Part shown: positions 1,068 to 24,980 of the stretch, piece by piece
How the letters are laid out: the number at the start of each line of letters is the position of its first letter
Numbering within the stretch: the first letter of the stretch is position 1
IMG/VR virus record: IMGVR_UViG_2565956721_000001
Direction: 5' to 3' (one strand)
DNA: 30,377 nt
Source of the DNA: a virus
Lineage: Duplodnaviria; Heunggongvirae; Uroviricota; Caudoviricetes
Translations under genes and position numbers: made by a program
The notes under the pieces: generated by a model
What the model saw: the letters and a program-made list of their open reading frames with translations, nothing else
The model's database searches: none
Told to the model about the DNA's origin: nothing

Positions 1068-4000
1068 TCAACTGATACTGATACCGGCTGTAGATTTCTT
1101 CATCACAACAACAAGAAGGTCGCTGATACTGGTCGTTGGCGTCCAGTTATTAGCACCATATGAAGAAACATTGAAAGTCAGGGTGACATGGCCGTGTCCG
1201 GCAGGCATATCAATGACTGATGAAAATACCCTGCTGACATCCGTCGCGGGTTGCTGAAAGATTTCCTGTCCGTTCTTCAGTACCTGCAGCTTACAGGTTG
1301 AATACCAGTATGACTGTTGGTTGTTGCTGTTGAAGTTTTCATGCTTACCCCCACGAAACAGAACGGGGGGGACTACTATCTGACGGTCAAAAGCCTGGTC
1401 ATCGTACACAGTGACCGTTATTGTACCGCTGGCATAACTGCCATTTCTCGGAAAGGCTTTTCCCACCGTTTTGACAATATCACCTTCAATCTGGTTAGCT
1501 GACAGTTTTCCCAGAATCCGACAGTTCTGATTAATCGTGACGTTGTTGAGCGTCCCGGAGTTCGCGTTCACGTTACCGCTGATATCCGCATTTTTCGCAG
1601 AAAGTCGACCATCAGGTGTCAGTGAAAACGTTGGGGGATTGCCACCGCTGGTAATGGTGGGAGCCGTCAGATATTTCAGGAACACTTCGTTCATGAATAT
1701 CTGATCGCCCTGCCCAACAAACATCGGCTTTGTGTTGCCATTCGCAGGATTAATCATCGCAATCCTGTCCGCCGCCAGCAGCACCTGACTCTGCATACCG
1801 TCAGGAGTATTCTCAACACCGGCACCAATACCCGCGATATAAAGGCGTCCGTCCTGCATCTGCTGCAGCTTCACAGCCCACATGCTGTTCAGGTTATTAT
1901 TTGTATCAACCTGAACCTTCTGTATCTGCTGGATCGCTGCACTCTGGTCTTCCAGTTTCTTATTGACGGTCTGCGTGATTTCATTGCTGACACCCGTAAT
2001 GGACGTCCTGATTTCAGCCAGGTCAGGCGCAAGCTGACCGTTATCAATCTGCGTCCACAACTCCTGAGCCAGATGGGTTTTCCCTATCTCTCCTTTGAAA
2101 AAATTCAGATAGCCGGATGCATCATCACTCGGCTGGCCAACAGCCTCCACAAATGCCGATTTGCCAACGGTGTTCACACTGCGGATGTAAAAATAATAAT
2201 CATGGCCCGGTTTGATATTGATACTGGCGGCTATCCAGTACAGCGCCGTGCCAAGATAGCGTGCTGTGGTTTCAACCTGCCTGATATCCGCAATCCGCTT
2301 TTCCGAGAACCAGAACTCAAACTGTACCGTCGGATCATAAACCGCAAGATGCGGCGTGGCGGTTATCTGAAAATACCCCGGTGTCAGCTCAATCTGCGAC
2401 GGCGCTGCCGGTGCGGCAATCCGGAACGATACCGATGCCGGATCGCCCTGCTGCCCCCACGCATTTACCGCCCGGACTGTCAGCCTGTAGTTCCCCAGCG
2501 CCAGTTGCCTGAAGCGGTATGTGGTTTCCGTCGTCCGGGCCGTGCTGACCAGCCGCTCACTGCCGTCATCCGCTGCCACGGTCAGGCGAAGCATAAAGCT
2601 CACCCCCTTCACCACCTTCGGCGTGTCCCAGCGCGCCAGCACCTGATATTCCCCGCTGTCTGCGGTGACTTCGGCAGTCAGGTGCTGCACCGCTGGCGGC
2701 GTGACACCATTCACCGTGCCGCTCTGGTCGCCGTCAAAGTGCGCCCCGTTATCCACGATGGCCTCTTTTTCCGGTACATGCTGCACGGCAGTGATGGCAT
2801 ACGTGCCGTCATCGTTCTCACGGATACTCACACAGCGGAACAGGCGCTGGCGCAGCGTCGGCAGCTTCAGCCCCCACACGCTGTATTCTGCAACGCCGTC
2901 AGGAACACGGCTCACTTTTACCTTCACGCCGTCGGTGACGGACTGGACCTCCACGCTGACCGGATTCCCCTGTCCGTCAGCCAGGCTTATCAGCGTGGTG
3001 CCGGAGGATGGCAGCGTGATTTCACGGTCGAGCGTCAGTGTCCGCGTCTGGTTGTTCACCGCCAGCACGCGCCCGCCGATGCTGATCCCCGCATAGTCAT
3101 CATCACAGATTTCAATGACATCGCCCGGTACATGGCGAAGCCCTTCTGCACCCACGCTGAAGTCCACGGTCTGCGTTTCCAGCAGCTCCGTTTTAATCAG
3201 CCACAGCCCGGCGCGGTGTGCCTGCCCCCGGCTGGTACAGCCAAAGGCATCCATCTTCGTGACGTTACGACCGTAACGGGCAATGGCCTGCGTGTCCTCC
3301 ACAAGCTCTGTCGCCGTCTCCCAGCCGTTATCCGGGTCAATCCAGTTCACCTCAACGGCATTATGGCGGTCTTTCAGGGCGCTGAAGCTGTAGCGGAACG
3401 GCGCGCCATCATCCGGCATCACCACATTACTGCGGTTATAGGTCCACACCTTATCCGACGGTCGGTCCTGCACGAATGTCAGCGTCTGCCCGTTCCATAC
3501 CGGCATACAGCGCATCGCCGAGCAAAAATCACTGAGCACATCCCACGCCTTGCGCTGTGTGGTCAGGTACGCATTACAGGTGATGCGCGGCTCCGTGCCG
3601 CCAAAGCCGTCCGGCACTGACTGGTCGCAATTCTGGCCGATGACATACAGCGCCCATTTATCCACATCTGCCGCACCAAGACGTTTCCCCATGCCGTAGC
3701 GCGGATGGGTCAGCATATCCCACAGACACCAGGCCATGTTGTTGCTGTATGCTAGCTTAAACGTTCCGTCCCAGATACCGCTGTATTGCCGCGTCTGCGG
3801 GTTATAGTTCGACGGCACCTGCAGAATGCGCCCGCGAAGATGATAATTACGGCTCACCTGCTGGCTGCCGAACTGCTCCGAGTCCACCTGTACGCCGACC
3901 AGTGCCGTGTTCGGGTAGCACTGTTTCACATCGATGATTTCGGTGTATGACGACCAGAGCGTTTTGTTCTGCAACTGGTCTGTGGTGCTGTCCGGCGTCA

Positions 4001-17420: not shown

Positions 17421-17623
17421 AACCTCACTCCCAGCGGACGACGGCGACACCGGGTTGTCCCCAGTACCGACTCCGCATCATTGATCGCCCGGTTAAGCTC
17501 ATCCAGAGAAGCCGCCGTATATTCAATTCTGCGACCATCTTTCTGGACAGACACCACCCGTTTACCGGTTAATAAATCAAGGCGCGCCTGACGCAGCGCC
17601 TGCAGTTCAGCGACTGTAACCAT
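17417..17623 (-). CDS. W: head-tail joining protein W
   Basis: 68-aa [40 protein letters not shown], same length as lambda gpW. Confidence 0.9.
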   Translation of the reverse strand: MVTVAELQALRQARLDLLTGKRVVSVQKDGRRIEYTAASLDELNRAINDAESVLGTTRCRRRPLGVRL

Positions 17624-19535
17624 TCACTCCTCCGGACAGCTTCGCTGCCAGTTCTTTAAGGGTTGGCCGGGTCGTCTCTTCTTCCCGGGATTTTGCCAGT
17701 ACAGCCAGATCAAGCTGCCAGCGTTGCACGGACACACGTAATGCCGCGTAGGCATACACCAGGCAGTCCAGCGCTTCGTTACGCCGCTTTTTGTTATCCC
17801 ACAGCAGACGCATCTTTCCTTTTTCCCACTTCTCCACAAGCTCTTCCGCGACCAGTTGCTGCGCCTCTGTCTGCGAAAAAATCTCCGGATCATCAGGAAA
17901 ACGGATAGCATACGACGTGGCTTCATCCACAGGCGTGGGATCGGCTTTCATACGGGCATAGAGAATTTCTTTTGCGGTGTCCGTCCCCACTTCACACAGA
18001 TACACGCCCCGCTGATTGCGGGTTTTTGGCATGGTGATCACCGGCTTGCCATAGACAGATGCGCCTTTTACCGGCAGCACCCGGAAAACACCGTGTTTTT
18101 TTGACCTCTGATAAACGATTTCGCCATCGATCCCCCCGGTGTCCCAGCAGACACGGGAAATGGTCATTTCGGTTCCGTCTGCATGGCGGTATTTTTTGTT
18201 GATCGCCGCATCCACACGTAACAGCGTCTCTTCCTCATCGGGACGCCCCATAATGATGATTTTATCCACCAGAAAGGCTTCCTCTCCCGGAGCCCATCCC
18301 CAGACATACATCTCAAAACGGTTTCGCTGCGAGTCAATGCCCGCCGTCAGATAAACCACCCGGGCAGGCACCGCCGCCGTGTAACGCACAACCTTATCCA
18401 TCAGCACCTGGTGATCGAGTTTTTCGCCCACAGCCTCTTCCCAGGTCTCGCCCAGCGTGGTGTTCACAAAGGTTTTCAGGCCGTTGGGATCTTTCAGTGC
18501 ATCCAGCCAGTCATAGACAATCTGTACCCAGGTGGTGAACGGACTGTACGCCGTCCAGATATGGAAAGTGATGGAGCGCGGCGGCGGAATTTCATTATCC
18601 GCGGCGCTGAAAAACATCAGGCCGTCACGGGTCCACATGCCCGTGTTTTCACAGATCCACCGCCCGTTACTCTGGTCAAGCTCAGACTGATGGATCACAC
18701 AGCCATGATGCTCACAAAGGTAGAAAACACTTTCTGGCTTATTCTTCTCCCACTTAAGACCGAAAGGCGAGGCATCATCGCCAAATTTCAGATACTGCTC
18801 CTCCCCACAGTGCGGACAGGGCACATAAAAACGCATGAAGTGTGCCGACTCGTTAGCGGCTTTTTCGATCTGGCAGGAGCCTTTGATTTTAGGCGTCGAG
18901 CCGCGAATGGATTTTGGCCATACAGAGCCCTCAATACGTTTATCCCCCAGCAGGGTTGGCGAACCCTCTTTTTCAACATCCGGTTCGAACGAGGAAAGCT
19001 CGTCATAACAGACCACATCCACGGATTTTTCACGGTAGTTTTTTGCTGCCGCACCACCCAGACACCAGAACCCCACACCGGAGGAAAAACGCTTCAGGGT
19101 GAGCGTATTATCGCGGTGTTTTCTTCCGAACCATGGAGCCAGCTCCAGCAATGCAGGAACATCCCTTATCGTTGGCTCAACATGAGATTTCATAAAATCT
19201 TCAGCAGCTGAGTCCGTGGGCTGAAAAAGAAGGCTGTTGCGTGATTTATGCTCAATAAAATAAGCCTCCACTCCCAGCAACATCTTTGTATAACCAACAC
19301 GGGCAGATTTAATCAGGTTAACCGTGCGAATCAGATCGTTGCCCATACAGTTCATGATGCCAACCTGAAACGGCAGTGTTTCCCATCGCCCCGGGGTATA
19401 AGACGACTCTTTAGGAAGGTAATAATGTTTATTGGCCCACTGAACTGTCGTCAGTGGAACAGGAATAATGAGAGATAAAAGCCCTGTAGCTATCGCACCG
19501 GCTGCATTAGCTGCCTTCTGCGCGTCTGAAATCAT
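17607..19535 (-). CDS. A: terminase large subunit A
   Basis: 642 aa from MISDAQ, chosen so that the YYLPKES motif has lambda spacing; overlaps the Nu1 3' end by about 29 nt as in lambda. Confidence 0.9.
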
Positions 19536-20055
19536 CGATCCACCCGCCCACGTTTTCACCGGCCTTAGCTGCAACATTGGAGGCTTTCGCGATTTCAGTT
19601 TTCACCACATCAAGGTGTGATGGTGAAATGTCCGGATATTTACGCTGTAATGTCAACGGCACACGCACAAGTATCCCCGAAATCTCCTGTGCCACACGTT
19701 GCAGAATGAAGGTAAACAGTTCAGTTTCCAGCACTACTCCGTCTTCACGGGCATTTTTCAGTTCCTGCGCATCTGCCTGCGCTTTTGTGAGCCGGTAGCG
19801 TTCATAGTCAATGGTGCCGGGTTGTAAATCTGACTCCGCTGCCGCACGCAAATCGTCCAGTTCTTTGCGGAGCTTTTCGTTTTCGATATCAGTTTCCCTC
19901 TGCGCATACCACTGAATTGCCATGGCAGTATCAAATACAGATTCAATGCCCTTACTACCTTTGGAGGCGCAAGGGAGTCCCTGAGACTGCCAGCGTTCAA
20001 TCGTCCGCGGGTCCACGTTGAAAATTTCGGCAAGCCTCTTTTTATTAACCTTCAT
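19507..20055 (-). CDS. Nu1: terminase small subunit Nu1
   Basis: 182-aa [31 protein letters not shown] with a winged-HTH N-terminus; matches recalled lambda Nu1. Confidence 0.95.
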
Positions 20056-20099
20056 GAAAACAACCCATTATCAAATACAAGGCCCGACATGAAAACGCC

Positions 20100-20290
20100 A
20101 GAAAAAGGCATTTTCGGACACTTTCATGTCGGACCTTTACGGATGCAATATTAAAAAAAACAAAAAGTTATATTCGAGAAGTACCGACACGATTTTCCCT
20201 GAAAAATTTTCATAAATAGTGAAAAACCGCGAGGTCGCCGCCCCGTAACCTGTTGGATCGACGGAAAGGACCCGAAAACGAGAATAATTA
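20100..20290 (-). other. cos site (cosB, cosN, cosQ side)
   Basis: Minus strand at 20243..20232 reads GGGCGGCGACCT (the lambda 12-nt cohesive end), followed by CGCGGTTTTTCACTATTTATGAAAATTTT and inverted CGACATGAAA/TTTCATGTCG motifs toward Nu1 (cosB R-site-like); the other flank resembles the lambda right end. Confidence 0.85.
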
Positions 20291-20294
20291 TCAC

Positions 20295-20324
20295 TTACAG
20301 CAAGAATCGAATCTGATCTATTAT
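20295..20324 (+). promoter_or_regulatory. candidate sigma70 promoter for the plus-strand small-ORF pair
   Basis: TTACAG, 18-bp spacer, TATTAT, about 70 nt upstream of the 83-aa ORF; assigned by eye. Confidence 0.3.
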
Positions 20325-20391
20325 GGTGCTTGCTATTATGTGCCGGCACAAGTGCGTCGTTTACCGTCATTTCACACAGAGGCATCATCAA

Positions 20392-20643
20392 ATGAAAATC
20401 AGAAATATTCTCGCTATCTCCCTTGCGACATCATCCTTCAGTTGCCTGGCATTTAAATCCTCGCCCAATGTGCTACCAGGACCAACGAATCAACTAACTG
20501 CGGTAGAAAGTAAAATTATCGGACATTTTTATGCCCCACACAGTACATTACCCGGAACAACCATCACAGGGACATGTGACGCCTCCCCCGTCCCGGGATG
20601 CACCTGTCCGTTTTGTACTATGCTGCGTAGCCAAAACCGATAA
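20392..20643 (+). CDS. small secreted Cys-rich protein of unknown function (83 aa)
   Basis: Internal ATG of the track ORF 20323..20643, preceded by AGAGG; predicted signal peptide MKIRNILAISLATSSFSCLA; C-terminus TGTCDASPVPGCTCPFCTML has five Cys. Not recognised. Confidence 0.5.
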   Translation: MKIRNILAISLATSSFSCLAFKSSPNVLPGPTNQLTAVESKIIGHFYAPHSTLPGTTITGTCDASPVPGCTCPFCTMLRSQNR

Positions 20644-20704
20644 CATCCGCATTTACCTGGTATTCCATGATGAGTTCACGCAGCGACTGATAGAGGAAGG
20701 AAAG

Positions 20705-20884
20705 ATGGTTAGTAAAAGCAAGGCGCATTGCCGCCGCATGCTGCAGGCATTGCAACAGACGAGAGCAGGTATTTTTGACCAGTTGGAAAACTGCCAGCAT
20801 ACTTTGCCCGAGTATATCGCCATCTCATCGGAAACCAGTGCAACTCTTATTCATCGGGTTCCACCAGAGAAAAAGAAGAAATGA
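20705..20884 (+). CDS. small protein of unknown function (59 aa)
   Basis: ATG preceded by a strong Shine-Dalgarno GAGGAAGG; MVSKSKAHCRRMLQALQQTRAGIF...PPEKKKK; inner start of track ORF 20531..20884. Confidence 0.5.
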   Translation: MVSKSKAHCRRMLQALQQTRAGIFDQLENCQHTLPEYIAISSETSATLIHRVPPEKKKK

Positions 20885-21006
20885 ACAGTGAGGCGTTGTG
20901 TGGCATACAACGCCTTCTTCCATCATTCCTCGTCAGCCATGACAAAAATATAACCGCTGGCTCTTTCATTTTTCTCCTGCTTCCAGCCCCTCTCTACCTG
21001 GAAGCA

Positions 21007-21333
21007 TCAAGGACGTGACGGCGTAAAGATAAATTGTCTCTTCACTCCCTGACAGGGGCGATTCTTTTCAAATCGCCATTTCGCCATGGCCTTCACCACT
21101 TCATCACGAAACAAATTATGAGGCTCTGAGCGGAGAAAAACGATCCGTGTCACAGTCCCATCAGCACCAATATCGAACTTAACCTCAACCAGCCCCTTGA
21201 TATAATTTGCTGCAGCATATTCCGGATATCGTGGATACACCGTCACTAATTGCCGGGGCTCATCAGCTTTTTGCTGCGAGCATCCCACTGCCAGGACAGA
21301 TAACAGAAAAAGTAGTAAAAGGCGTCTTTTCAT
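21007..21333 (-). CDS. lipoprotein with TonB C-terminal-like domain (109 aa)
   Basis: ATG at 21333 preceded by AGGA; signal plus lipobox MKRRLLLLFLLSVLAVGC; mature part has the TonB-C signature (YPRYPEYAAANYIKGLVEVKFDIGADGTV...AMAKWRF). Confidence 0.65.
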   Translation of the reverse strand: MKRRLLLLFLLSVLAVGCSQQKADEPRQLVTVYPRYPEYAAANYIKGLVEVKFDIGADGTVTRIVFLRSEPHNLFRDEVVKAMAKWRFEKNRPCQGVKRQFIFTPSRP

Positions 21334-21813
21334 TTTTATTCCTACGGGTCTTATTCTGACAATATATCCTGTGTTCCAGACTGCCACATCACCACATCCT
21401 GTGCCATTATCTGACTCACATTACATACATCGCATCGGGATACAGTAGTAGCACTTTCTGTAATACAGCTTCCTGTTTCTTCCACCATCGCACCGGGATA
21501 AACCCGCGAATCATTAACGCGGTAAAAACCCGGTGTGCATCGTTTTTAATTATTCCCGCACACTCACGCAGAAGGAATTCCCCGTCGGGCTACGGTCATG
21601 GTTAATGCGGGAATACGGCGACGATACAGCGCAGCTAAAAGGGTAATGGACGGATAGACCGGTTTATTTCATTCCACAGGATTCTGAGTGTCCCCAACTT
21701 CCTCCAATAGTCTGAGCCCACCTGTGTAGTTTTAATTTTCATCAATCCATTTAACTATCGTTTAATTGTTGTCACATAGGATTCTGCCGTTTTTAACAAT
21801 GCAGGATAATAAG

Positions 21814-22107
21814 ATGAAAAAAATGTTGTTTTCTGCCGCTCTGGCAATGCTTATTACAGGATGTGCTCAACAGACGTTTACTGTTGGAAACAAACCTACA
21901 GCAGTAACACCAAAGGAAACCATCACCCATCATTTCTTCGTTTCGGGAATTGGGCAGAAGAAAACTGTCGATGCAGCAAAAATTTGTGGTGGTGCAGAAA
22001 ATGTTGTTAAAACAGAAACCCAGCAAACATTCGTAAATGGATTGCTCGGTTTTATTACTTTAGGCATTTATACTCCGCTGGAAGCGCGTGTGTATTGCTC
22101 ACAATAA
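21814..22107 (+). CDS. bor: Bor lipoprotein (serum resistance; Iss family)
   Basis: 97 aa MKKMLFSAALAMLITGCAQQTFTV...EARVYCSQ, near identical to recalled lambda Bor; opposite strand to the late genes as in lambda. Confidence 0.9.
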   Translation: MKKMLFSAALAMLITGCAQQTFTVGNKPTAVTPKETITHHFFVSGIGQKKTVDAAKICGGAENVVKTETQQTFVNGLLGFITLGIYTPLEARVYCSQ

Positions 22108-23472: not shown

Positions 23473-23897
23473 AGCTGTGTGACGAAGTAACCACTCTTAA
23501 CAGCATAACCAATTTTTTACGTACGTAAACTACTAAATGATATTTGTGAGAATGCCACCGAGTGTTCAAAACACCACCACAAATGCATAAGAAAACTTCA
23601 ACAAATAACCAGTTAATAATTTCCGATGTTATTTTTAGTTTGTTTAAATTAAGCTAAAGAATTATAGAGCACTTATAAATAAGTGCCATTAATATAAATT
23701 AGCTAATAGATTTATTTTTGTTCAGACAAGAGCCATGAATAGGATTAGATAGAAAAGGTTCAGATAAAAATAGAGATCTACTTCACAAATTAAATGAGAA
23801 ACTAAAACTTACATCTTGAAATAATCACATTGATTAGATGAATATTTATCGCGCAGTGACATCATTTTTTAATAATAGTTCAAAAAAAGGGCGTACA

Positions 23898-24980
23898 ATG
23901 AAAAAATTAACAGTGGCAATTTCTGCTGTAGCTGCATCAGTACTGATGGCGATGTCTGCTCAGGCAGCTGAAATTTATAATAAAGACAGTAACAAGCTGG
24001 ATCTATACGGGAAAGTTAATGCCAAGCACTACTTCTCCTCTAATGATGCAGATGATGGTGATACTACTTATGCCCGTCTTGGCTTCAAAGGTGAAACCCA
24101 AATCAACGATCAACTGACTGGTTTCGGTCAGTGGGAATATGAATTCAAAGGCAACCGTGCTGAATCTCAAGGTTCTTCCAAAGACAAAACCCGTCTTGCA
24201 TTTGCAGGCCTGAAATTTGGTGATTACGGCTCAATCGATTACGGCCGTAACTACGGTGTAGCATACGACATCGGTGCGTGGACTGACGTTCTGCCAGAAT
24301 TCGGTGGTGATACCTGGACCCAAACAGATGTGTTCATGACTGGTCGCACTACTGGTGTTGCAACTTATCGTAACAACGACTTCTTTGGTCTGGTCGATGG
24401 CCTGAACTTTGCTGCTCAGTATCAGGGTAAAAATGACCGCACTGACGTAACTGAAGCCAATGGTGATGGTTTCGGTTTCTCCACTACTTATGAGTATGAA
24501 GGATTCGGCGTGGGTGCAACCTATGCTAAATCAGATCGCACTGACGGTCAGGTCGCCTATGGTAAGAGCAAATTCAATGCCTCCGGCAAAAATGCGGAAG
24601 TATGGGCTGCAGGCCTGAAATATGATGCGAACAATATCTATCTGGCTACCACATATTCTGAAACTCAGAATATGACCGTTTTTGGTAATAACCATATTGC
24701 AAACAAAGCACAAAACTTTGAAGCAGTAGCACAATATCAGTTTGACTTCGGTCTGCGTCCATCTGTTGCTTACCTTCAGTCAAAAGGTAAAGACCTTGGT
24801 GTTCATGGTGACCGAGACTTAGTCAAGTATGTCGATGTCGGTGCTACTTACTACTTTAATAAAAACATGTCCACTTTTGTTGATTACAAAATCAACTTAA
24901 TTGACGATAGTAAGTTTACCAAAACAGCTGGTATTGATACCGACGACATCGTCGCTGTAGGTCTGGTTTATCAGTTCTAA
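23898..24980 (+). CDS. nmpC: outer-membrane general porin (NmpC/OmpD family)
   Basis: 360 aa from [23 protein letters not shown] (signal peptide) with AEIYNKD...LVYQF (C-terminal Phe), typical OmpC/OmpF-family beta-barrel; start preceded by AAGGG; AT-rich upstream region. Confidence 0.85.

Follow-up and report, generated by a model that had tools for sequence, protein, structure and literature searches.

A conserved gene beside cos of phage-21-type prophages encodes a predicted exported four-cysteine mini-protein from a family probably linked to zinc starvation

Introduction

A segment beside the cohesive-end site (cos) of a lambdoid prophage, positions 20,295 to 20,884 of the Caudoviricetes record IMGVR_UViG_2565956721_000001, raises the question of whether two small open reading frames (ORFs) that lie in it are genes and what their products might do. 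The whole stretch of DNA that was analyzed, 30,377 nucleotides (nt) long, is referred to as the window. The two ORFs are present as they were described in a first-pass annotation made from the sequence alone: ORF 1 encodes 83 amino acids (aa) and ORF 2 encodes 59 aa with a KKKK tail, and both lie on the plus strand between cos and bor, antisense to the late operon (Nu1 and A are encoded on the minus strand). The analysis presented here identifies ORF 1 as a genuine conserved gene. Its product is probably an exported mini-protein with four conserved cysteines (Cys4), a member of a family linked to zinc starvation that was captured as a prophage moron, whereas ORF 2 most likely does not function as a gene.

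Conservation of ORF 1

The features of ORF 1 are as follows (positions are those of the window).

20392-20643, plus strand: ORF 1 (orf83), 83-aa precursor, start codon ATG at 20392, stop at 20643
20379-20382, plus strand: Shine-Dalgarno sequence GAGG of ORF 1
20392-20451, plus strand: predicted signal peptide, aa 1-20 (MKIRN / ILAISLATSSF / SCLA), with a predicted signal peptidase I (SPase I) cut between A20 and F21
20575-20631, plus strand: C-terminal motif C62-x7-C70-x-C72-x2-C75-TMLRS (family consensus GTCxAxPVPGCxCxFCTMLR)

When 5.8 billion proteins were searched, full-length homologues of ORF 1 (82-84 aa, 55-77% identity) were identified in Salmonella (subspecies salamae, indica, diarizonae, and houtenae), Klebsiella, and Citrobacter. 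Profile searching of 1.84 billion representative proteins added ~25 clusters to the family, mostly of 79-85 aa. With a 13-sequence alignment as query, one genome per species was then scanned, which located 22 family loci within Enterobacter, Pantoea, Superficieibacter, Phytobacter, Dryocola, Raoultella, Klebsiella, Kosakonia, and Serratia. Pairwise ratios of non-synonymous to synonymous substitution rates (dN/dS) among six diverged loci were 0.09-0.20, with dS values of at least 0.7 and synonymous sites at or near saturation. DNA homology between the window and distant loci is limited to 20384-20645, which corresponds to ORF 1 plus ~8 bases ahead of the start codon, and the block around the start codon (ATCATCA[AG]ATGAAA) is kept in all but one of the five distant homologous loci that were compared. 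ORF 1 is a real gene, beyond what chance would produce, because its full-length homologues are conserved and dN/dS is 0.1-0.2. Conservation as an ORF in relatives, which the first-pass annotation raised for both ORFs, holds for ORF 1 and not for ORF 2, which was not found outside the phage-21-type module.

Within E. coli, the reading frame of 83 codons is intact in all 82 near-identical copies (29 haplotypes), which display four synonymous, five non-synonymous, and no disrupting variants. Diverged-looking contigs that are indel-ridden even within the neighboring gene for a lipoprotein with a TonB C-terminal domain (TonB_C) were excluded (L016-L018). A 106-aa reading of ORF 1 that starts at 20323 was rejected: the extension is not conserved and every homologue begins at the MK[IV] codon. 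A codon-usage log-likelihood trained on the structural genes of the prophage gave -0.26 for ORF 1, +0.01 for ORF 2, and +0.14 for an ORF antisense to ORF 2; with the conserved ORF 1 scoring lowest, this measure is uninformative here. Two rare E. coli variants (P0003 and P0006) are read in the +1 frame for ~10-15 codons (EQPSQGHVTPP) and then return to the original frame with the CxCxxC end kept; these stretches may be sequencing errors or compensated frameshifts.

Predicted export and the four-cysteine motif

Export of the ORF 1 product was assessed with a heuristic for Sec and SPase I substrates. It looks for a basic n-region, a hydrophobic stretch (h-region) 7-15 residues long, and small amino acids at -3 and -1 of the cut, all of which ORF 1 has. 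The basic n-region (K2, R4) is followed by the h-region ILAISLATSSF, with a hydrophobic peak of 1.99 at residues 6-14 (Kyte-Doolittle, 9-residue window), and then by C-L-A|F. The signal peptide that had been noted initially is therefore also predicted here. In its A-x-A|F site, A20 and F21 are each conserved in at least 90% of 25 family members, and position -3 is usually Ala. The putative cut was assigned to SPase I and not to a lipobox because A20 and F21 are conserved while C18 is Ala in most members. A lipobox was considered and rejected; the copies from Escherichia, Salmonella, Klebsiella, and Citrobacter have C18, and most members of the wider family have Ala or a different residue there. 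We infer from these sequence features that the product is exported via Sec and cleaved by SPase I.

The mature product would begin with FKSS and have ~63 aa, a mass of 6.65 kDa, and an isoelectric point of 8.5, with a variable linker and a helix around E39-Y47 ahead of the C-terminal motif. The C-terminus was initially described as containing five cysteines, a count that needs correction: the 20-mer quoted in its support has four, and the fifth (C18) is located at position -3 of the signal-peptide cleavage site. All 25 members have C62, C70, and C72, and 90% or more of them have C75. ORF 1 and the 25 family members gave no Pfam match at E<=1, enterotoxin families included, and the family had no match in NCBIfam, PHROG, or PADLOC. 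A sequence-profile search of the PDB with ORF 1 returned nothing. AlphaFold2 models built from 15 and 25 sequences reached a predicted local distance difference test (pLDDT) score of 47 and 60, respectively, with helices only at 33-47 and 73-81, and a Foldseek search of the PDB identified no structural neighbor for these low-confidence models. A literature search on the motif, on WP_000881610, and on Zur-regulated small Cys-rich proteins found nothing on the ORF 1 family. Overall, ORF 1 belongs to an uncurated family of 80-85-aa, predicted exported Cys4 mini-proteins that extends across the Enterobacterales. The original description of small Cys-rich prophage cargo from no known family is thus supported for ORF 1, which is conserved and has no curated family. 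The proposal of a second small gene is not supported for ORF 2, which lacks conservation outside the phage-21-type module and whose substitution pattern looks neutral.

The GCxCxxCTxLR signature of the bacterial family is shared by two asparagine-rich low-complexity proteins of 611-627 aa (P0106 and P0108), which are eukaryote-like and carry a ubiquitin-like N-terminus and four to five repeats of P[IL]PGCNCPKCT.LRN. The similarity represents either a common motif or a coincidence.

Zur boxes and zinc-related neighbors

An alignment of the 160 nt upstream of family members, in sequence that is otherwise unalignable, revealed the palindrome TGTTAT-N3-ATAACA. This palindrome is the core of the proteobacterial Zur box, which has the consensus GAAATGTTATA-N-TATAACATTTC (PMC4219657). 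Of 28 loci, 13 carry the Zur core TGTTATNNNATAACA with zero or one mismatch in the 600 nt upstream, and the positive loci fall into six groups (Citrobacter koseri; Pantoea; Phytobacter/Dryocola/Superficieibacter; Klebsiella/Raoultella; Kosakonia/Phytobacter; and Salmonella, in which the box stands ahead of a PPC-domain gene that precedes the ORF 1 homologue). The background was six sites in 277 kb of the same loci (0.013 per 600 nt), and five of these six fall in loci with zinc-transporter genes (L026-L028). The eight Serratia-type loci (L036-L043, counting L036, which is titled Pseudomonas lundensis) carry a site 28-29 nt before the start codon, with two mismatches in seven loci and three in one.

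Several loci also have zinc-related neighbors: AztD together with AztC, ZnuA/ABC-3 transporters, second-copy genes for porphobilinogen synthase (hemB) or dihydroorotase (pyrC), and COG0523 GTPases. Among 129 ORFs that flank 17 of the loci, a Pfam scan assigned ZnuA/ABC-3 to three ORFs, ALAD (hemB) to three, and cobW to two. The most likely place of the family is within the Zur-controlled response to zinc starvation, because the chromosomal genes sit behind predicted Zur operators and often beside genes for zinc acquisition or zinc sparing.

No Zur site was found for the mobile copies of the gene (the window, a second type of lambdoid prophage, a Klebsiella contig that is probably a plasmid, and a phage-borne subfamily, L029/L123/L124). 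Four mobile copies were scored within 160 nt upstream, and the best Zur-like site differed from the core by three to five mismatches. The prophage copy was concluded, on these sequence comparisons, to be uncoupled from Zur.

A comparison can be made with known periplasmic proteins of the enterobacterial Zur regulon (ZinT, AztD of aztABCD, and PliG). These are Sec-exported and encoded behind a Zur box (PMC4219657), features that are also predicted for chromosomal members of the ORF 1 family. One chromosomal ORF 1 relative adjoins aztD and aztC. The ORF 1 product differs from these proteins in having no sequence or fold similarity to them, a far smaller size (~63 aa when mature), a Cys4 motif, and a prophage copy without a Zur box. 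Periplasmic zinc-binding proteins generally use His, Asp, and Glu ligands, unlike the Cys4 arrangement of ORF 1.

Genomic contexts of the ORF 1 family

In phage-21-type prophages, ORF 1 adjoins cos on the strand opposite to the late genes (the anti-late strand). From 20244 to 21450 the window matches, at 100% identity, both the right end of phage 21 (OL657228.1, a record whose end falls on window base 20244) and prophages of CFT073, Nissle 1917, S88, IHE3034, APEC O18, and others. The stretch 20240-21000 is present at 97.8% identity or more in 1,223 of 5,426 complete E. coli genomes (about 22%), and the LF82 prophage Perceval carries the segment at 99.9% identity. Lambda and DLP12, to which the first-pass annotation pointed for comparison, do not contain ORF 1, and similarity to lambda and K-12 is confined to the first ~60-141 bases beside cos.

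A second lambdoid type carries an ORF 1 homologue at 71% identity in the same position and on the same strand by cos, where it is followed by a DUF3950 gene and not by ORF 2; a DUF3950 ORF is presumably also what lambda and DLP12 (ylcI) carry beside cos. The Klebsiella copy (L004-L006) is located on the 211-kb contig CP024459.1, probably a plasmid, and adjoins a ZigA-like COG0523 GTPase and a Fur-family regulator. A degenerate cos remnant lies upstream of it (3820-3862) and this copy therefore descends from a prophage. In Salmonella enterica subsp. salamae (L007-L009, 3454-6166) the homologue is part of an island that consists of a Zur box, the PPC-domain gene, the ORF 1 homologue, a bor homologue, and an omptin, flanked by a SPATE-type autotransporter and an NEL (SspH/SlrP-like) effector. 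The interval from the ORF 1 homologue to bor in this island contains a Fur-like palindrome, TGATAAAAATTATCA. Further family members are found at ordinary chromosomal sites. No conserved partner gene of the family emerged from an all-against-all BLAST of the flanks of 27 loci or from the Pfam scan of flanking ORFs.

ORF 1 is accordingly an accessory gene between phage modules, on the opposite strand and in varied contexts (two prophage types, a plasmid, an island, and chromosomes), which is the definition of a moron. It is probably a stand-alone prophage moron, and its autonomous transcription in the lysogen is presumed. Other lambdoid morons (bor/iss, the DUF3950 ORF, and the TonB_C lipoprotein gene) are likewise small accessory genes opposite the late operon between cos and the lysis genes, and like ORF 1 they are exchangeable among phages and also found in non-phage contexts. 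ORF 1 differs from them in representing another protein family that is missing from the lambda and K-12 prophages, and autonomous expression has been shown for the TonB fragment only.

ORF 2 and the overlapping antisense ORF

The features downstream of ORF 1 are as follows.

20705-20884, plus strand: ORF 2 (orf59), 59 aa, start codon ATG at 20705, KKKK tail
20618-20800, minus strand: antisense ORF (orf60m), 60 aa, overlapping ORF 2 and about equally long
20890-20916, plus strand: hairpin 5 nt past the ORF 2 stop and before the convergent TonB_C gene (folding free energy -17.9 kcal/mol, z-score -3.0)

ORF 2 has no homologue beyond near-identical copies in the 5.8 billion proteins and in a phage collection, and the antisense ORF has no relatives beyond near-identical E. 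coli copies. Neither follows any of the diverged ORF 1 homologues. Among the 82 copies, ORF 2 displays two synonymous variants, seven non-synonymous variants, and two frameshifts, and the antisense ORF displays no synonymous and six non-synonymous variants. A +1 insertion at 20719 destroys both ORFs, and the variant that carries it is widespread (the P0024 cluster is found on 486 contigs). ORF 2 thus lacks the marks of a coding gene under selection (diverged relatives, a synonymous excess, and freedom from frameshifts), and so does the antisense ORF. Most likely, ORF 2 does not function as a gene; it is not distinguishable from a chance ORF because it has no relatives outside the phage-21-type module, its substitution pattern looks neutral, and frameshifts recur.

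Some observations would fit a real, very young second cistron that is specific to phage 21 and co-transcribed with ORF 1. The ribosome-binding sites reported initially for the two ORFs are both present (GAGG for ORF 1 and GAGGAAGGA for ORF 2), and the Shine-Dalgarno sequence of ORF 2 is strong and ideally spaced, ending 4 nt before the ATG. No RNA structure lies between ORF 1 and ORF 2, the stable hairpin follows closely on the ORF 2 stop, and the frame is intact in 71 of 73 IMG/VR copies. PHROG 4843 and RefSeq WP_000253883.1 also exist for ORF 2. Set against these points, the lack of diverged homologues, the absence of ORF 2 downstream of every diverged ORF 1 homologue, the neutral variant pattern, and the spread of the frameshifted variant leave such a cistron unlikely, if with an appreciable chance. 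It is far less probable that the antisense ORF is the true gene of the stretch, expressed from the late transcript. This ORF lies on the late-operon strand, is annotated as WP_000881610.1 and CPT_21_75, and matches PHROG 3744. It was rejected as a gene, given that it is broken in 24 of the 73 IMG/VR copies (the stop E46* in 22 and a frameshift in two), has no synonymous variant against the six non-synonymous ones, has a weak Shine-Dalgarno sequence, and lacks diverged homologues.

The hairpin at 20890-20916 is a candidate terminator; its U-tract is poor and a terminator scan did not call it. The most plausible reading of 20644-20916 is that the transcript of ORF 1 ends here, with an untranslated 3' portion and a terminator region where two morons converge.

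Public annotation presents a different picture of this stretch. The phage 21 record and most RefSeq genomes annotate the antisense ORF, RefSeq annotates ORF 2 only where the antisense ORF is broken, and other phage records annotate out-of-frame ORFs of 67 aa and 117 aa. The phage 21 record additionally contains a 40-aa minus-strand ORF (20847-20969) that is affected by a stop and an indel in natural variants. PHROGs families exist on both strands (4843 for ORF 2 and 3744 for the antisense ORF) and therefore show merely that gene finders called both; they decide nothing. ORF 1 is unannotated in every E. coli RefSeq record inspected. In these records, as in the classic model phage 21, one of two mutually antisense and unconstrained ORFs is annotated and the conserved ORF 1 is skipped.

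Elements upstream of ORF 1

The following elements were identified upstream of ORF 1.

20331-20339, plus strand: candidate extended -10 element TGCTATTAT, identified by eye
20340-20351: perfect 12-bp palindrome TGTGCCGGCACA, between the candidate -10 element and the ribosome-binding site of ORF 1
20279-20293: Fur-box-like 7-1-7 palindrome CGAGAATAATTATCA, just inside cosQ and ~100 nt upstream of ORF 1

A scan for the sigma-70 consensus at 9 or more of 12 matches found no promoter for ORF 1. The candidate promoter that had been credited to the two ORFs is therefore reduced to the extended -10 element seen by eye. The stretch 20331-20351 is a possible promoter/operator for ORF 1. Loci L010 and L013 have different inverted repeats (GTTAyGT-N4-ACrTAAC) at a similar distance ahead of the start codon.

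The 7-1-7 Fur-box consensus is TGATAATNATTATCA, from which CGAGAATAATTATCA differs by two mismatches. The palindrome is the sole site with two or fewer mismatches in the 30-kb window, where 0.11 would be expected by chance, and a perfect copy of TGATAATNATTATCA is located at the same place in the second prophage type (L013-L015, 3866-3880). The block is part of the cos flank that is common to more than 4,000 E. coli genomes, and lambda presumably carries TGATAATGATTATCA at this position, ahead of its DUF3950 ORF. The palindrome may represent a shared iron-responsive promoter module for whichever moron adjoins cos, and is treated here as a lead only.

In an LF82 lysogen, a "TonB fragment" that adjoins ORF 1 was transcribed 8-fold above the prophage background (PMC9928086). 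ORF 1, ORF 2, and the antisense ORF are not annotated in that transcriptome study.

Possible functions of ORF 1

The explanation favored here, and judged somewhat better than even, is that ORF 1 encodes an exported Cys4 mini-protein from a family linked to zinc starvation that was captured as a prophage moron, next to a nonfunctional ORF 2. The 83-aa precursor would be exported by Sec and cut by SPase I after A20 to release a periplasmic protein of ~63 aa. Its Cys4 site might bind or handle zinc or another soft metal, or the protein might be needed in another way in a zinc-poor envelope. The two types of lambdoid prophage and the Klebsiella plasmid would have acquired the gene as a moron with loss of the Zur box, and lysogens probably express the prophage copy from its own, differently regulated promoter. 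Several points weigh against this explanation. ORF 1 of the window has no Zur box (the best site has five mismatches and none with two or fewer is nearby), and the zinc link rests on homology and may not hold for the prophage copy. Periplasmic cysteines more often form disulfides than bind zinc, and two disulfides among the four cysteines are equally possible. The low-confidence AlphaFold models gave no fold match, and the E. coli polymorphism of ORF 1 indicates weak constraint at shallow depth. If the zinc link fails, a gene-model correction and a new family remain.

A more specific version, in which the family would be a new class of Zur-controlled periplasmic Cys4 proteins that bind zinc and feed or buffer uptake by ZnuA/AztC, with one copy captured by prophages of extra-intestinal pathogenic E. 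coli and uncoupled from Zur, is considered less likely than not. If it is true, lysogens would make a Cys4 protein in addition to the products of sitABCD, iss/bor, and the TonB fragment, either constitutively or controlled by the phage or by Fur, and might gain an advantage against metal sequestration by the host. The Zur boxes and zinc-uptake neighbors offer a cheaply testable hypothesis of a new small player in the zinc-starvation response. Prophages whose other cargo serves metal acquisition and serum resistance carry a mobile version of it that is putatively uncoupled from Zur.

Toxins, bacteriocin-like peptides, and envelope modulators were the roles put forward in the first-pass annotation, and the analysis lends them no support; the Zur response to zinc starvation, to which the evidence points instead, was not among them. 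The most developed form of this idea is a secreted toxin, bacteriocin-like peptide, or pre-pro-peptide akin to the heat-stable enterotoxins (STs) that serves as virulence cargo. Precursors of STa and STb resemble ORF 1 in size and in the order of signal peptide, ~40-aa spacer, and Cys-rich C-terminal ~20 aa; the salamae homologue lies in an island with bor, an omptin, and an NEL effector; and many carriers are extra-intestinal pathogenic strains (CFT073, S88, IHE3034, and APEC O18). The number and spacing of the cysteines differ from those of STa and STb, with C-x7-C-x-C-x2-C being unlike ST and guanylin peptides, none of the 25 members matches an enterotoxin family or a defence model, and the neighbors include no immunity, processing, or export partner. 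Most family members are chromosomal, behind Zur boxes, in plant- and soil-associated Enterobacterales, and a toxin or enterotoxin is considered improbable because this Zur context and distribution argue against it. Similarly low odds apply to a role in superinfection exclusion, in which the product would be a lipoprotein of the outer membrane that, like T5 Llp or phi80 Cor, blocks the receptor of a phage or colicin, perhaps together with the TonB_C lipoprotein. The E. coli sequence SSFS-C18 fits the loose PROSITE lipobox rule, UniRef labels some family members "Lipoprotein", and a cargo position beside another envelope moron would suit such a role. The replacement of C18 by Ala in most of the family and the conserved A20|F21 indicate SPase I instead, PADLOC gave no match, and the chromosomal Zur-linked members have no phage context. 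The least probable of the functions considered is that of a Sec-exported precursor of a ribosomally synthesized and post-translationally modified peptide (RiPP), with cysteines modified by an enzyme encoded elsewhere. Bufferins, RiPP metallophores made by MNIO enzymes, share with ORF 1 a small size, a Sec signal, a conserved Cys-rich C-terminus, and a context of metal stress and homeostasis, and a DoxX-family gene lies 3.8 kb away on the Klebsiella plasmid. ORF 1 differs in that it has no adjacent MNIO/DUF2063/DoxX operon, no conserved neighbor of any kind, and a link to zinc starvation and not to copper stress; of the 118 Pfam families in the flanking ORFs, the 25 most frequent include no MNIO/DUF692, DUF2063, or radical-SAM family, and no member of the ORF 1 family matches DUF2282.

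The surrounding prophage segment

The window represents a lambdoid prophage read in reverse, in which tail and head genes are followed by the terminase genes, cos, the small ORFs, the TonB_C gene, bor/iss, and the lysis genes. The remaining features are as follows.

17607-19577, minus strand: terminase A
19507-20055, minus strand: Nu1
20232-20243: cos cohesive end AGGTCGCCGCCC, read from the sequence
20267-20273: cosQ, as annotated in phage 21 record OL657228.1
21007-21333, minus strand: TonB_C lipoprotein gene, 108 aa from the ATG at 21333, between cos and bor
21766-22107, plus strand: bor/iss, followed by the lysis genes

The small genes of the interval were initially listed as the two plus-strand ORFs, which are present; the TonB_C gene had gone unmentioned. 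Its product matches PF03544 at 1e-12 and also TIGR01352, and the region 21007-21387 contains a lipoprotein signal (MKRRLLLLFLLSVLAVG|C) on the late-operon strand. The 82 copies carry nine synonymous, four non-synonymous, and no disrupting variants in this gene, which indicates purifying selection. The lipoprotein could act as a decoy for partners with a TonB box. PHROGs places the gene in "Rz-like spanin" (phrog_1267), which looks like a mislabel.

An Rfam search of 19900-21900 returned nothing meaningful. The lysis genes and the Q region are separated by a 380-aa ORF on the plus strand (23838-24980), which occupies a position where CFT073 annotates a porin (ompC/nmpC-like) and would be another moron on the anti-late strand.

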